Shown here piece after piece: positions 21,281 to 64,000 of a stretch of DNA of 64,000 bases. How positions within the stretch are numbered: position 1 is the first letter of the stretch; every line of letters starts with the position of its first letter. The position numbers and the translations under genes were made by a program. Source of the DNA: Octopus vulgaris (lineage: Eukaryota). Location of the stretch: assembly GCA_951406725.2 (NCBI GenBank), contig OX597832.1:7688001-7752000 (forward strand), read 5' to 3'. Under the pieces are notes generated by a model that saw nothing but the letters and a program-made list of their open reading frames with translations, searched no databases and was not told the origin of the DNA.

Positions 21281-21371
21281 CTAGTTTCCTGGACCAATTG
21301 GTTTCTAATCTTCCTTTAGCGAGTCAAGGAGAACCCACAAAGTCTGATTATCTTCAGCAGGTCCAATCTAG
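21281..21371 (-). ncRNA. type I hammerhead ribozyme motif (in a PLE-like element at about 21140-21443)
   Basis: ctag-attgga-cctg | CTGAAGA | taatc...gatta | GAAA | ccaattgg | TC | cagg-aaa-ctag: core, three stems and GUC site all present. Confidence 0.8.
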
Positions 21372-35927: not shown

Positions 35928-37831
35928 CACATATATGAGAGTGTATCTGTGAGTGTGTGCGTCTGTGTTGATATATAAACGCATAGACACATACACACCT
36001 ATATATTTATGTGTGTGTATGTATTTGTATATATCAGTGCATATCTATGTGCCATGTTAAGTACTTTTAACCGTAAAAGTAAACATGTCATTCGAAATCA
36101 TAAAATGAATACGAATCTCAACTAAAAATACAGAGTGTGGCGATATGGTCGATTATGCACCTGATGGCAGTGCTCTTTCTTGGCCACACTCCAATGAACA
36201 CACAAGCAAAGTAATACAAGAACATATATATATATATATATATACGTTTTTTCTAAACATTTATTTTGTTCGAAAAAGCAGAAAAGTTGTATGTTGATAA
36301 GGTCGGCGATTGACCTTCATGCCGTTAAGTTTTCTGCCTCTGTTTATTGAGATCAGATACATATGTGGATGACTATGTTGTCGGGTAATAGAGTTTGATC
36401 TTCTACCCATTTACACAACCTGAACGTTATTCTATGTTTATTGTGCAAAATTTTCTTGTTCAAAATTTCTCTTGACTACATTCCAATTTTTGTATTCGAA
36501 AAACATTGTTGATCAATGAAACCATTTTATTTTGTCCTGAGAACACATCTGCACTTTTAATAGTGTCTTTTACCAGCACCTGCACTACCACCACCACCAC
36601 GACCACCACCACCACGACCACCACCACCACGACCATTACCACCATCGAACACCAACACCATCGAACATCACCACCACCACAACCACCATCGTCACCACCA
36701 CTAAAACATACCGACACAACCGTCACCGGTATCAGCACTTAGTAATAGCGCAACTGCCATCACCAATCCGACCATGACCACCACCATCTCCACCACCACC
36801 ATCACCATCACCATCACCACTATCTTCATGATCACCACAAACACAACCAGCGCCACCAGTTCCACCGCCGCCGCCAAATCACCAAAGCACAAATCCACCA
36901 CCACTACCATCTCCACCAACGCAACCACGCCATCACTACCTCTACCACCACCGCTACCACACCACCGCTATAATTACCACCATCAAGTCCTCCACCACTA
37001 ACACAACATCACTATAACACCCTCACGCTGCCACGCCATCACTATCTCACTTTCCTAGCTCGAAATCCCTTCACCACGACCACCACACTTATCGGAACGT
37101 CCACCTGTATTCTTAAGGATTCCTAAGATCTTAACGTGATACGAGATTTGCTGGATGTCCTCTCGCAAGTGATGACAGTTGCTATCCAGTCTCAGCATCT
37201 GCAATCTGAAGTCTGCAAGGATGACGTGTTGAATGGTGAAGGGTGGTGGAAGGAGACACCGGGAAGATAACGGTTTAAATAAGGATTGCAGCAAAAAAAG
37301 GATATACATAAAAAAAGCAACCATCTCCATATCAGAACTGTCAAGGGTTGGTGTGGGGCATAGGAACCTGATGGATACCCTCCACCCGTGCTCTTTCTTT
37401 TCTGACAATTTTATTAAAATACATGGGTGATAATATTAATTATTATAATGATGATGGCGATGATGGTGGTAGTAGAGACGATGATGTTCATGATGATGGT
37501 GATGATTATGGCGATGATGATAATGGGGGCGGTGATGATGATGGTGGTGCTGATGAAACTGATAATGAGGATGATATGTTGACGACGACGACGACAACGA
37601 CGATGATGATGGTGATGATAATGGTGATTATGCAATTGATGATAAGGATGATAACAGTGAAAATACTTCAGCTGATAGTGGTGATAATGATGATGAGGGC
37701 GATGACAATGAAATAGTCGAAGACGACGACGAGGACGACGACAGTAATGATGATGCTGATGATATATATATATATATATATATATAGTGAATTGAAGAAA
37801 TGGAGTTGAACGAAGATTGAACAGAAATCGT

Positions 37832-37926
37832 TTTATTGCATTCTACACGTGTTTCGAAAGGCACAATTTACCAAATTCCGATTGAATAAGGAGACCATAT
37901 TGTGTCTTTCTCTTCAGGAAGAAATA
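37832..37926 (-). ncRNA. type I hammerhead ribozyme motif (left arm)
   Basis: Reverse complement of the 38496-38590 motif. Confidence 0.8.
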
Positions 37927-38495
37927 GGAAATCCGTTGGAAAAAACAAAAACAGAACAGAGGCGGAGCAAAACAAATCGAACGAGGCTCCTAAGAGCCCA
38001 TGGCCAAACTGTTTATCAATGTATGTTGAAAACGGGTGGTGGGTGCGTTGAAGATTTTAACGGGTCAGGCAGCGGTCATTCCGGTGGGTGTGAGCACGGG
38101 GTGCGTAGATGTTCTTTGTGACCGAGACTAAAGTTCTGACTATTTAAAGAATATTAGGTGTACTGTTCTATATATGCGCGGCCGCAAGTTGCGGCCGCGC
38201 ATATATAGAACAGTACACACAGACATGTTTCTAAGTAGATTTTTTCTCGCCCCATATAATACACCTAATATTCTTTAAATAGTCAGAACTTTAGTCTCGG
38301 TCACAAAGAACATCTACGCACCCCGTGCTCTCACCCACCGGAATGACCGCTGCCTGACCCGTTAAAATCTTCAACGCACCCACCACCCGTTTTCAACATA
38401 CATTGATAAACAGTTTGGCCATGGGCTCTTAGGAGCCTCGTTCGATTTGTTTTGCTCCGCCTCTGTTCTGTTTTTGTTTTTTCCAACGGATTTCC

Positions 38496-38590
38496 TATTT
38501 CTTCCTGAAGAGAAAGACACAATATGGTCTCCTTATTCAATCGGAATTTGGTAAATTGTGCCTTTCGAAACACGTGTAGAATGCAATAAA
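38496..38590 (+). ncRNA. type I hammerhead ribozyme motif (right arm)
   Basis: ttc | CTGAAGA (38505-38511) | gaaagacacaat...attgtgcctttc | GAAA (38567-38570) | cacgtg | TA | gaa, then AATAAA at 38585. Confidence 0.8.
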
Positions 38591-38792
38591 ACGATTTCTG
38601 TTCAATATTCGTTCAACTCCATTTCTTCAATTCACTAATAATATTAAAATTCAATTATCCGCACCAACGCACGGTTGCAACACCATATGGTTGTACCTCC
38701 AACCGTGCTGTCTTCTGCTGTGATTTTTGCTACCAAGGTATCGGTTAAACTTTTGATTAATCTGCAACAAGATTATTCATCTTTCTATTTCA

Positions 38793-38831
<39 letters not shown>

Positions 38832-39568
38832 CATATATTTCTATGTATATATATGTATATATATATATTCTTGTATTACTTTGCTTGTGTGTTCATTGGA
38901 CTGTGGCCAAGCCAAAGCACTGCCATCAGGTGCATAATCGATCATATCGCCACTCTGTATTTTTAGTTGAGATTCGCATTCGTTTTATGATTTCCAAGGT
39001 AATGTTGAGGATGTTTGTGACAATGATGATTATGAGGACGGCGACGAGGAAGGCGATAATGATAACGATCATTATCGTCATAACATGAGCGTAGTGTTGA
39101 AGATGAAGATGACATTAATAGACAAGCGTGTTGAACATCTATCCTTCCTTTAAGATGATTATGTTATCATTTTATTAATATCTTGTTGGTTGTACAACCG
39201 AATAGATTTCACATCTGAATGTAGCGTGAACTCTATGTAGTATTTCAAGGATTACCATCAAGAAAAGGGAACCGTTAACACTGCAAGGTAGAAGCAAAGA
39301 GTCGTTCTCTGGCTGCATAAACATGATGTTGTTGTTTAAGCTCTGTTCACCAATAATTGACAAACGCAAACATCAAAAATGTTTCAGTGGTCACCCTTGG
39401 CTTTTCTCTATATCAGAGACAAGTGTCTCTGTACATTTTATTTTTCATGACAACAGTGCTGAATCAGAGAAATTTAACAGCAATTTTTTGTTATTCGAGT
39501 AACTATGTCTCGATATTATCTCAAGCTCTCTTATAACTTACTAACATATTCAGATCAGAAGTGACCAT

Positions 39569-55425: not shown

Positions 55426-56026
55426 GTGGAGGCACATGGCCTAGTGGTTAGAGCAGCGGACTTGCGGTCGAGGGATTGCATGTTCGAATCTCGGGCGATG
55501 TGTGTGTTTATGAGCGAAACACCTAAGCTCCACGCGGCTCCGGCAGAAGGTAATGGCGAACTTCTTCTGACTCTTCGCCACAACTTTCTCTCACTCTTTC
55601 CTCCTGCATCTTGCAACCCACTTGCGACGGACCGGCATCCCGTCCAGGTGGGGAACCTATACGTCAAGGAAACAGGGAAACCGACCCTTATGAGCTAGGC
55701 ATTGCTCGAGAAGGAACATTTATGGAGGTACATGGTCTAGTGGTTAGAGCAGCGGACTCGCGGTCGAGGGATAGCGCGTTTGAATCTCAGACCGGGCGAT
55801 GTGTGTGTTTATGAGCGAAACACCTAAGCTCCACGCGGCTCCGGCAGAAGGTAATAGCGAACTTTTGATGACTCTTTCGCCACAACTTTCTCTCACTCTT
55901 TCCTCTTGCATCTTGCAGCCCACCTGCGACGGACCGGCATTCCGTCCAGGTGGGGAACTTATACGCCAAGGAAAGAGGGAAGTCGGCCCTTACGAGCCAG
56001 GCATGGCTCGAGAAGAAACAAACAAA
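55426..56026 (+). mobile_element. head-to-tail dimer of tRNA-derived SINE family C with one 10-bp TSD
   Basis: Units about 55426-55718 and 55722-56026; head tggcctagtggttagagc...gttcgaatc; actgtttatc at 55414-55423 and 56027-56036. Confidence 0.9.
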
Positions 56027-56522: not shown

Positions 56523-57158
56523 CTATTCATCTATCTATCTATCAATCTATTTCCCCCTCTCTCTTTCTCTCCCCTTCTTGCCTCTCCCCCTCTCTCTTTA
56601 TCTCTCTCTCATATATTTAATTATATGTTCATACAAATATTTACCCATACACAAAACTCACACAGCCATATGCATACATATACATATAAAAGACACACAT
56701 ATATACAATCATACATACACATACAGTAACAATATTTGTGCATATCCAAGTGTATGTGTGTGTATGCGTGTGTGTGTGTATGTGTGTGTGTGTGTGTGTT
56801 TGTGTGTGTGCGTCTGTGTTTGTCAGAGAGAAAATTATGACGAATAAAAATTTGCTCTTTCGTATATTACACTTTATTACTTTATGCTACAGAGAAATAA
56901 AAACATTCGTTCCCACAAACATAATGTAATATAGACGTCTTCAAGGTCCTTTGTAGTTAAGCATTCCTTTGCACTTGGAACATCCAAATACAGTTCCAAT
57001 CAAACGGAATGCTGAAACGTAGGGAGGAACGCAATTAATATAAAGTTGAGTTTATTGTAAAATTCTCCAAATTTTGCCGAAGAATGTAGTATGTACTAAA
57101 CTTAATTTGAATTAAATTTTCAAAATTGATTTATTTAGTCTGTACATTAAAGGCGAAA

Positions 57159-57847
57159 TGAAGATCTACCAGGCATGTGTACTCAGCACTCTACTGTATG
57201 TAAGTGAGATCTGGACGCTATACACACGCCAAGAGCGTCGCCTAAACATCTTTCACCTGCGCTGCCTCCGAAAAATCCTCCGCATCAAATGGCAGAATCA
57301 TATCCCCAACAAAGATGTCCTCAGGCAAGCAGGAATACCAAGCATGTTTGCACTCCTCACACAAAGACGTATGAGATGGCTTGGGTATGTTAGCCGTATG
57401 AAAGATGGCAGAATCCCCAAGGACATACTCTACGGAGAGCTTGCTAGGGGTACAAGGTCTGTGGGTAGACCGATCTTACGTTACAAGGATGTTTGCAAAA
57501 GGGACATGAAGGCCTGCAACATCAATATTAGCGGTTGGGAGGCAGTTGCCCGCAACCGTGGAGAATGGCAACGTACAGTAAAAGAGGGAATACAAAAGAG
57601 TGACAGAGAGAGAGAGAGGAGAAATGGAAAGAAAGGAAGAGACGTAAACAAGAGACTATGGCACTACAACCAGCCAGGAACAGCCTTCGCTACATTTGCG
57701 GTACCTGCCAGAGGGAGTGTTTGTCCAGGATAGGACTACACAGCCACAGCAGGAAATGTATCAGGACATGAAATATAAAAGCCGGACTAGACTACTTCAT
57801 GCGCAACTCCATTGTCTCCCGAGACAGAAAGGATGCCAATACAATAC
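57159..57847 (+). mobile_element. 5'-truncated RTE-clade LINE with 10-bp TSD
   Basis: ORF 57158-57733 IYQACVLSTLLY.SE.W...FHLRCLRKIL...RIPK.ILYGEL...GRP.LRYKD; (caata)n tail; aaaggcgaaa at 57149-57158 and 57848-57857. Confidence 0.92.
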
Positions 57848-63059: not shown

Positions 63060-64000
63060 AGAGGAAGAAATAACTAATCTTGTAAATGAACACAATCATA
63101 TATTATAGATACTGCGGAAGTTGAAGCTACAGAAACTGTTATAAAAATACGGCAGATGGCAAGAACTTCTAATGATACACCACAATCTATAATATCTAAT
63201 GCTTTCGAAGGTTGTAGTGAGGCTGCTCTGTCTAGGCTGCCGTTGACACAAAGTCTTAAAAGGACAGTACCTTTTATAAGGCAACAAAATCATACAGTTC
63301 CAGCCTTACCAAGGACTTGCAATGAATTAATTTTTCCTGGTGAATATACAAAATCCCTCAAAGGTGAAACATTCTTAATATACGATTCCGGTCAAAATGA
63401 TAAACGCATGCTAATTTTTGCTGTCAAACGCAACCTTCATTTACTTTCACAAAGTAATCAATGGTTTGCCGATGGTACATTCAAGACAGTTCCATTGTTG
63501 TTTAACCAACTGTATACTTAGCATGGTTTAAGAGAAAAAGCTTTAGCGCCGTTGGGGCTTGTGTTACTGCCCAACAAATGTGAAGAAACCGATAGTTTTT
63601 ACAGAAAATATAAAAAAATTTAGACCATTCTGTGCACCTTCAGGTGTAACGTAGACTTTGAAAAGGCGATGCAGAATGCATTCCGTAAGGAATTTCCAAA
63701 TGTGAAAATCAAGATATTCGCAGATATTCAGAGACTGGCGTACACGTGCGTACTGGACAAGCTTACCAGAGCACATACATACACACAGTTACAGGTACAC
63801 CAAATACACACACACGCACACACATAGACACACACACACAAATCAAGGGGTTGTTGTGTATTCCGTTCAGTTCAGAGAAATTGTCTCCAGAGATTATACG
63901 AAACGAATTCTGAATTTGCTTTGAGGATACGGATATTGTTAACCATAGCATTTGTTCCAGTTGAAAAAGTGGCCGAGTCATTTAAAATATTATACGATAA
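63060..64000 (+). pseudogene. MULE (Mutator-like) transposase remnant
   Basis: ORF 63156-63521 FLIYDSG...RMLIFA...WFADGTFKTVP..FNQLYT*HG, then DFEKAMQNAFRKEFPNVKI/KG. Confidence 0.9.

Follow-up and report, generated by a model that had tools for sequence, protein, structure and literature searches.

A hammerhead-bearing palindrome in the Octopus vulgaris genome as a truncated, head-to-head copy of a Penelope-like element

Results

A palindromic unit inside a (TA)n array

The window studied here is a stretch of 64,000 nucleotides of Octopus vulgaris DNA, and all positions are counted from its first nucleotide. At 37762–38828 it contains a palindromic unit bordered on both flanks by (TA)n. The left part of this target lies at 37762–37784 (the TA array itself runs from 37762 to 37786) and the right part at 38798–38828; neither has a strand, and a target-site duplication is indistinguishable inside the microsatellite. 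The palindrome is centred on G38188, around which a left arm (37785–38187) and a right arm (38189–38637) pair as 25 bp plus 377–378 bp. This is far beyond chance expectation, and a separate repeat search detected the inverted pair again with 99% identity. The arms are mismatched at exactly two positions, 38091/38331 and 37815/38607. In addition, 46 nucleotides present only in the right arm (38214–38259, plus strand) and bounded by two TACAC direct repeats have been lost from the left arm at 38162/38163; the placement of this deletion slides by 5 nt, and its junction is found in none of the other fetched loci. An earlier note on this DNA had described the palindrome with both arms, the two substitutions and the 46-nt deletion, set in (TA)n. 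All of its coordinates were reproduced, and the array was seen on both flanks.

With U1 set at 38189, the right arm is a direct, 5'-truncated pseudo-LTR part (U1–449, plus strand) that continues into a 160-nt tail (U450–609, 38638–38797, plus strand). In full-length and tandem copies of the family this tail is the leader, and it ends ~45 nt before the first ATG of the open reading frame. The ~160 nt on the right had been regarded as extra sequence, but they belong to the element, and 30 of 30 loci share the same end point. The left arm is an inverted arm without a tail, running on the minus strand from U449 back to U−4 (37785–38191). It is family-native on that strand through the central G plus the next TTG, that is, through CAAGTTG, and it overlaps by 3 nt the right arm, which begins at U1. 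The inversion junction, CAA-G-TTG (38185–38191), is a 3-nt microhomology at a native 7-nt quasi-palindrome. The family sequence at this centre is ACCAAC/TTGCGG, with the G on the top strand. The single-G centre of the earlier note holds for the base at 38188, but this G is no spacer; it is the family's own next base on the strand of the left arm. The exact inversion junction occurs once in the assembly.

Other repeats were also seen in the window. Inverted copies (91%) of another, 120-nt repeat lie 2.6 kb apart at 36126–36245 and 38845–38964, flanking the region. A 302-nt unit is duplicated at 55427–56020, and we take it to be tRNA-derived (SINE-like); 57116–57733 is presumably a C-terminal fragment of a LINE-type RT, and we assume 63090–63521 to be a transposase-like fragment. 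The minus strand at 21284–21361 has an unrelated type I hammerhead-like motif with CUGAAGA, a 5-bp stem II, the self-complementary ACCAAUUGGU, a GUC site and a 4-bp stem I, with a (TA)n run ~90 nt away. This motif is possibly the end of another Penelope-like family.

The hammerhead motifs

The hammerhead motif of the direct arm (38502–38581, plus strand) has a CUGAAGA core at 38505–38511, a stem II at 38512–38523/38555–38566, GAAA and a GUA site. Stem II consists of 12 bp with one A-C mismatch and an inner hairpin, stem I is 3 bp long, and stem III is formed by ACACGUGU at 38570–38577, so that the cut is predicted after A38578. The motif of the inverted arm occupies 37841–37920 on the minus strand, with C3 at 37917 and the predicted cut base at 37844. 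The two motifs are on opposite strands, and no single transcript has both in sense. The geometry claimed before, from the core and the 12-bp stem II with its one mismatch to GAAA, GUA and the short stem I, was thus re-derived. Searches against Rfam, which had been suggested as a check, gave no hammerhead match either over the whole window at the gathering score or over 37700–38900 at E<=10. At the palindrome centre only sub-gathering miRNA matches were returned, such as any hairpin gives.

Covariation was analysed on eight copies from four sister families. The core is invariant. Of the 12 pairs in stem II, 7 are altered on both strands of the stem, and at the centre of stem III CG is replaced by UA among the sister families with self-complementarity kept. 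The covariation score was reached by none of 500 shuffles, and slid controls were 28–44% paired, against 93% for the motif; the set comprises few independent lineages and counts as support, not as a probability. Judged by sequence, the motif has the CUGANGA/GAAA/NUH core and the three stems of a type I hammerhead, with stems II and III backed by covariation. The proposal of a type I hammerhead with palindromic stem III is therefore borne out by sequence and covariation. The word intact, which the earlier note applied to both motifs, is apt at the level of sequence and covariation, and activity is putative.

In the predicted fold of the monomer, stem II has a pairing probability of 0.84–0.95, whereas stems I and III do not exceed 0.02. 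This lends no support to the claim that each divergent transcript would cleave itself. The stem III duplex in trans has a predicted energy of −10.3 kcal/mol. The fold predicted for a read-through RNA has every ribozyme base (80 of 80) paired to the opposite arm, in agreement with the idea that such a transcript would bury the ribozyme. The hammerhead would be carried along as a passenger in the pseudo-LTR and is predicted to need a second copy in trans; this insertion itself is likely inert. Copy ends in the genome are not concentrated at the predicted cut; 15 of the 28 sites that contain the ORF start read through it, and the other 13 start later, at scattered positions. This agrees with the hammerheads of other Penelope-like elements (PLEs) as described in the available text of two reports. 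Those of metazoan PLEs cleave weakly and mainly as dimers (PMC4209133), and that of PAc requires the PAc protein and is dispensable for insertion (PMC11167929).

The parent element and its protein

A search of the same genome with 38189–38797 (U1–609) gave 2175 candidates, and the 40 that were scored have 97–100% identity across almost the full 609 nt. Each of the 30 fetched loci ends at U606–609 in (TA)n, and most extend upstream of U1. Walking upstream led to full-length copies, L068 and L069, with 908 codons open from stop to stop, or 904 residues from the first Met. At L170 (G000:C1:119,514,414-119,525,314) at least four hammerheads occur at a spacing of 3624 bp, which is a head-to-tail tandem of full units, and one of these units holds an 899-codon frame.

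Neither an RT nor a GIY-YIG family was recognised in the ORF by Pfam, and searching the PDB by sequence found nothing. Among 107 homologs of the ORF the sole informative name was Argonauta. A structure model built with 101 sequences has a pLDDT of 80, and its seven best Foldseek/PDB matches are telomerase RTs; no GIY-YIG structure is among the listed fold matches. The RT motifs YRDD and FDIxxFY are present, placing a telomerase-like RT in a single ORF. The GIY-YIG domain was recognised by motif, as VYQ...YVG, R811, H815, E870 and N883 are nearly invariant in the alignment (A1). The assignment of the protein is based on motifs together with the predicted fold. The ORF also has two low-complexity inserts with low pLDDT, at 490–557 and 633–762.

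The family shows pseudo-LTRs, partial tandems, an inverted 5' copy, a tail at one end and a pseudo-LTR hammerhead on the sense strand, as do endonuclease-bearing (EN+) PLEs. The unit in the window is almost certainly a 5'-truncated copy of a Penelope-like element. The Penelope-like origin suggested earlier is well founded, because the right arm and tail are the 3' end of a high-copy PLE with a 904-residue RT and GIY-YIG ORF, and a genome search of the kind proposed, with right arm and tail, did lead upstream to this ORF and revealed tandem and inverted forms. The companion suggestion of a non-coding element or retrozyme has to be given up, since the unit is truncated and the family from which it derives is autonomous and codes for protein.

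Because of an in-frame stop, read by eye, a leader intron (GT at U551) would fail to connect a short upstream frame with the ORF. Upstream of U1, the 3' UTR is a diverged tandem of ~80–100-nt units (L004:1320–1520 and related loci), the number of which varies between subfamilies. A different RT and GIY-YIG frame of 787 codons adjoins a family copy at L031:2711–5071 (G000:C4:95.04 Mb), where Pfam finds RVT_1 above cut-off and GIY-YIG weakly. Another type of hammerhead with a palindromic stem III is located at L087:1878.

Clade and the cysteine linker

In the available text of PMC8557442, the Hydra clade is defined by features that include RW, DKT, the absence of CCHH, CxxC/CxH around the E and N residues, and (TA)n insertion. 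L068 contains RIRWL and SDKT, so that RW is present (with L as third residue, not the K of RWK) and DKT stands in place of DKG; DK[TS] is found in 94 of 107 homologs and DKG in 3. CCHH is absent. Most copies have CNLCVSE (CxxCxxE) and VN...CPH, with one Cys between VYQ and YVG. Insertion into (TA)n is seen at 30 of 30 3' ends and also at the ends of inverted arms. The motifs alone would place the family as Hydra-like. Assignment to the Neptune clade was tried and dropped against the clade definitions given in the same text (PMC8557442). For Neptune, Nematis and Penelope-Poseidon alike, the CCHH zinc finger with two Cys between GIY and YIG is lacking, and the family has DKT, not DKG.

The CxCX5C linker is not conserved in this family. 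All but one of 14 translated family frames read GCSSRNKY, with one Cys; the exception, L071, reads GCSSCNKY, with two. The linker occurs in 81 of the 83 homologs that reach CxxCxxE and is absent from the sister families L076 and L079. A role of the linker in (TA)n targeting has been put forward as a hypothesis (PMC8557442, available text), and if lineages without the linker keep inserting into (TA)n, as this one does, that would argue against it. The same genome encodes, at L093, an endonuclease with an intact CxCX5C-type linker, and mobilisation in trans by a linker-bearing element is a possible route to (TA)n insertion without a linker of one's own. L093 and L087 represent further PLE families in the genome.

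How common the mirrored architecture is

An inverted arm ending at U449–458 is present at 20 of the 30 best loci, window included, and is lacking at the other 10; this set favours loci with long direct arms. A gapped pattern for the hammerhead group gave 5438 exact matches (control, 0), and two exact subfamily patterns gave 900 and 893. Among the first 100 listed for each subfamily, 23 and 30 outward-facing pairs within 5 kb were counted by hand, with one pair at 5.3 kb omitted, and there were no inward-facing pairs. All 53 pairs were fetched; they come from contigs C1–C2 only, and each had to have a hammerhead on both of its arms. In 52 of the 53 a single arm bears the tail, and at L149 and L150 the tail-bearing arm continues into the full ORF. 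The inverted 5' LTR piece that the earlier note had invoked is a regular feature, with the pseudo-LTR present in inverted form at 53 sampled sites.

After removal of 6 complex junctions, 47 clean ones remained. The arm starts lie within 5 nt of each other in 8 of these, which are near-perfect palindromes (1.9 by shuffling), and within 30 nt in 22 (6.9 by shuffling), an excess that is inflated by the pooling of two subfamilies with different size ranges in the shuffle; 24 of the 47 differ by more than 31 nt. Extrapolation from C1–C2 gives about 450–500 outward pairs in the two subfamilies, and near-perfect palindromes of the order of 80. The mirrored architecture is not unusual in this genome.

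Palindromes of the same family with arms of 2–3 kb and 99.2–99.7% identity were seen at L070, L071 and L072. In 10 of 53 tail-less arms the 5' ends cluster 85–103 nt upstream of the hammerhead core (loci L115, L118, L127, L135, L137, L139, L140 and L164), at about U215–232, corresponding to 38403–38420 in the window. This cluster is a possible RNA 5' end or RT stop.

Age of the copy

At 38607, 34 of 34 other copies carry the base of the left arm, and at 38331, 28 of 34 carry the base of the right arm; by this comparison one substitution is derived on each arm. The arm divergence is 0.54%, against a family median of 0.5% and 3.0% between copies. At 25 of 28 loci no other copy is closer to either arm than the two arms are to one another, which indicates that both arms arise in one event. 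The description of the insertion as very young is right in that the family is young, but at 0.54% the copy is not unusually young within it. With a calibration of 0.09 for 25 My, as given in the available text of PMC13282606, two differences in 403 bp correspond roughly to 0.7 My, assuming an octopus-like host and with a wide error. In public contigs (24 runs listed), four DNA-like runs give very high summed depth on both arms. No listed public piece bridges the centre, four runs aligned to the 77-nt centre gave no match, and the contigs are uninformative on that point.

Discussion

Formation of the inverted arm

The insertions have two fixed outer ends, U449–458 and U606–609, each next to a target-like stretch similar to TTCAC-[TA]-AAT. 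Of the 32 junctions without inserted bases, 23 show microhomology of at least 2 nt (2–6 nt), where 16–19% would be expected, and other junctions have short templated inserts. Microhomology and templated inserts are typical of polymerase-theta joining. Of the 24 asymmetric junctions, 10 have an inverted arm that extends beyond the direct arm on the 5' side, with a difference of as much as 2.7 kb; such an inverted arm must have been reverse-transcribed separately and is no copy of the direct arm. At the 8 near-symmetric junctions, the arm without a tail exceeds the other in 7 cases, matches it in 1 and falls short in none (sign test about 0.016, on a small sample), and the centre polarity of the window agrees with this set, its tail-less arm being the longer. 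Taken as a whole, the unit is probably best explained as a truncated copy of a Hydra-like PLE in which two primings were joined by microhomology. The double-priming step itself we favour with less assurance, as the somewhat better bet.

In this scheme, the GIY-YIG domain would nick both strands of the (TA)n target. One target 3' end would then prime cDNA at the end of the tail, and the other at the AT-rich border between pseudo-LTR and tail. At this locus the tail-less cDNA would have run to U−4, and its TTG-3' would have paired with CAA on the partner cDNA and been extended; alternatively, the TTG-3' may have paired on its own cDNA and been transferred to the tail-bearing one afterwards. In the symmetric subset the end of the tail-less arm would fold or anneal first. 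The 46-nt deletion and the two substitutions would have arisen later or during repair. The available text of PMC11167929 describes a PLE protein (PAc) that nicks both strands, has two internal RT starts bounding the tail and probably acts as a dimer, according to a prediction; the two start sites and the double-strand nicking allow a double-priming model. Two independent cDNAs alone are insufficient, because they leave the near-symmetric excess unexplained, and this is the weak point of the model. The 7:0 polarity points to a true snap-back step in the near-symmetric subset, and plain double priming is to that extent incomplete.

Two other routes to a mirrored arm were weighed against double priming. 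A single target-primed, tail-bearing cDNA could have snapped back and been copied to U449, where it was joined to the left (TA)n. The excess of near-symmetric junctions, the variants shared by the arms, the tiny-loop centres and the repeated templated inserts (L116, L118, L121 and L123) would all suit this route, and cDNA snap-back is a documented class of 5' junction for R2 transgene insertions (PMC11371274, available text). It would, however, put the unpaired centre base on the other strand, in disagreement with the window and with 7 of 8 near-symmetric junctions, and the longer inverted arms at 10 of 24 junctions would be impossible. We therefore regard it as quite unlikely, and the simple fold-back of one target-primed cDNA, as proposed in the earlier note, does not fit the data. 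Priming of a hairpin on itself before integration, from antisense RNA or free cDNA, with trimming by the endonuclease at the AT-rich pseudo-LTR/tail border and insertion of the duplex, accounts for both the polarity and the fixed end at U449–458. Antisense-RNA self-priming was proposed by Arkhipova et al. from palindromes at inverted junctions (PMC3846280, available text). Yet at 24 of 47 junctions one arm, sometimes the direct and sometimes the inverted, is longer than the other by over 31 nt, and inversion-free copies share the same 3' end; neither is explained. This route is unlikely for the family at large, and self-priming before integration remains a rival for the near-symmetric subset.

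The remaining alternatives concern the nature of the unit itself. A retrozyme of the non-autonomous kind, or a pair of ribozymes that the host retains as regulatory RNA, would be in keeping with a non-coding unit that has two sequence-intact hammerheads and covarying stems. The unit is nevertheless head-to-head, its exact junction occurs once, and every part of it is the end of a coding element; the arm divergence is ordinary for the family, and reading the ORF list of the window by eye revealed no host gene. Both ideas are very improbable. Less probable still is a fold-back artefact of sequencing or assembly. The absence of an independent contig across the centre could be held in its favour, although the data are uninformative there, but a fold-back chimera would not produce arms that differ by two substitutions (one derived per arm), a 46-nt deletion and a tail. 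A one-sided architecture with family-specific ends recurs, moreover, at 53 sampled loci with differing junctions.

Returning to double priming, we tentatively suggest, with rather less than even confidence, that a highly successful Hydra-like lineage has lost the linker and yet inserts into (TA)n every time, that it primes cDNA on both target strands at look-alike RNA sites 160 nt apart, and that the tail-less cDNA, rather than its tail-bearing partner, is the first to fold or anneal. If so, its hundreds of head-to-head insertions would document the mechanism that has been missing for the inverted repeats of Penelope elements.

Relation to known elements

Taken alone, the locus is a truncated copy of a transposon and nothing out of the ordinary. 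Its architecture is known already, and the family was not found described in the open-access literature, where no paper was found on the family, the centre polarity or the linker loss. How the tandem and inverted ends of Penelope elements are built, and how microsatellites are found, are named as open questions in the available text of PMC8557442. A young family with hundreds of scorable junctions and intact ORFs is suited to a test of end formation. Palindromes of this kind are, in addition, a potential genome-wide source of long dsRNA.

The most similar known elements are PLEs of the Hydra clade such as Hydra-1_Obim and Penelope-13_HM (Craig et al. 2021, PMC8557442; this comparison and those below refer to the available text of each report). 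Shared features are a C-terminal GIY-YIG, RW, DKT, the lack of CCHH, CxxC/CxH around E and N, (TA)n and a sense hammerhead near the 3' end. Penelope-13_HM also has a 5'-truncated inverted copy, with a hammerhead on each strand. In contrast to that clade, the unit here measures 3.6 kb and not <3 kb, the tail ~160 nt and not 30–40, the ORF contains two low-complexity inserts, and the CxCX5C linker is down to one Cys. Unlike the hammerhead of Hydra-1_oBim, the present one has a 12-bp stem II with a conserved inner hairpin.

Penelope insertions with inverted pseudo-LTRs resemble the present ones in their head-to-head pseudo-LTRs and one-end tail (PMC3846280; Craig et al. 2021, legend to fig. 2), and in their junction palindromes and N/S-rich ORF inserts (PMC3846280). 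The 53 loci sampled here show, in addition, a one-sided polarity at the centre and sharply fixed ends, two in number, which are not part of the published descriptions. PAc (Poseidon of Anolis; Frangieh et al. 2024, PMC11167929) likewise has two RT starts bounding a tail, AT-rich targets and genomic copies that read through the hammerhead site. It is of another clade, and its tail is short and inside the ORF, whereas the tail here is in the leader and about 150–160 nt long. The minimal or atypical type I hammerheads that Cervera and de la Pena (2014, PMC4209133) reported for PLEs are similar in their long helix II, short helix I and small palindromic helix III, and dual hammerheads 100–700 bp apart on opposite strands are known from Schistosoma. 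In the present motif G10.1 directly follows the core, without the unpaired base common in theirs.

In R2 cDNA snap-back (PMC11371274), a 5'-side inversion is joined by microhomology, as here. Retrozymes are head-to-tail tandem repeats (10.64898/2026.07.22.740005). The octopus unit differs from a non-LTR retrozyme in being a single head-to-head unit with a coding parent. LINE-1 twin priming also yields a 5'-side inversion joined by microhomology, and it inverts without duplicating. At the octopus insertions, by contrast, there are two copies of the 3' end, and for this either a tandem RNA or a pair of templates is required.
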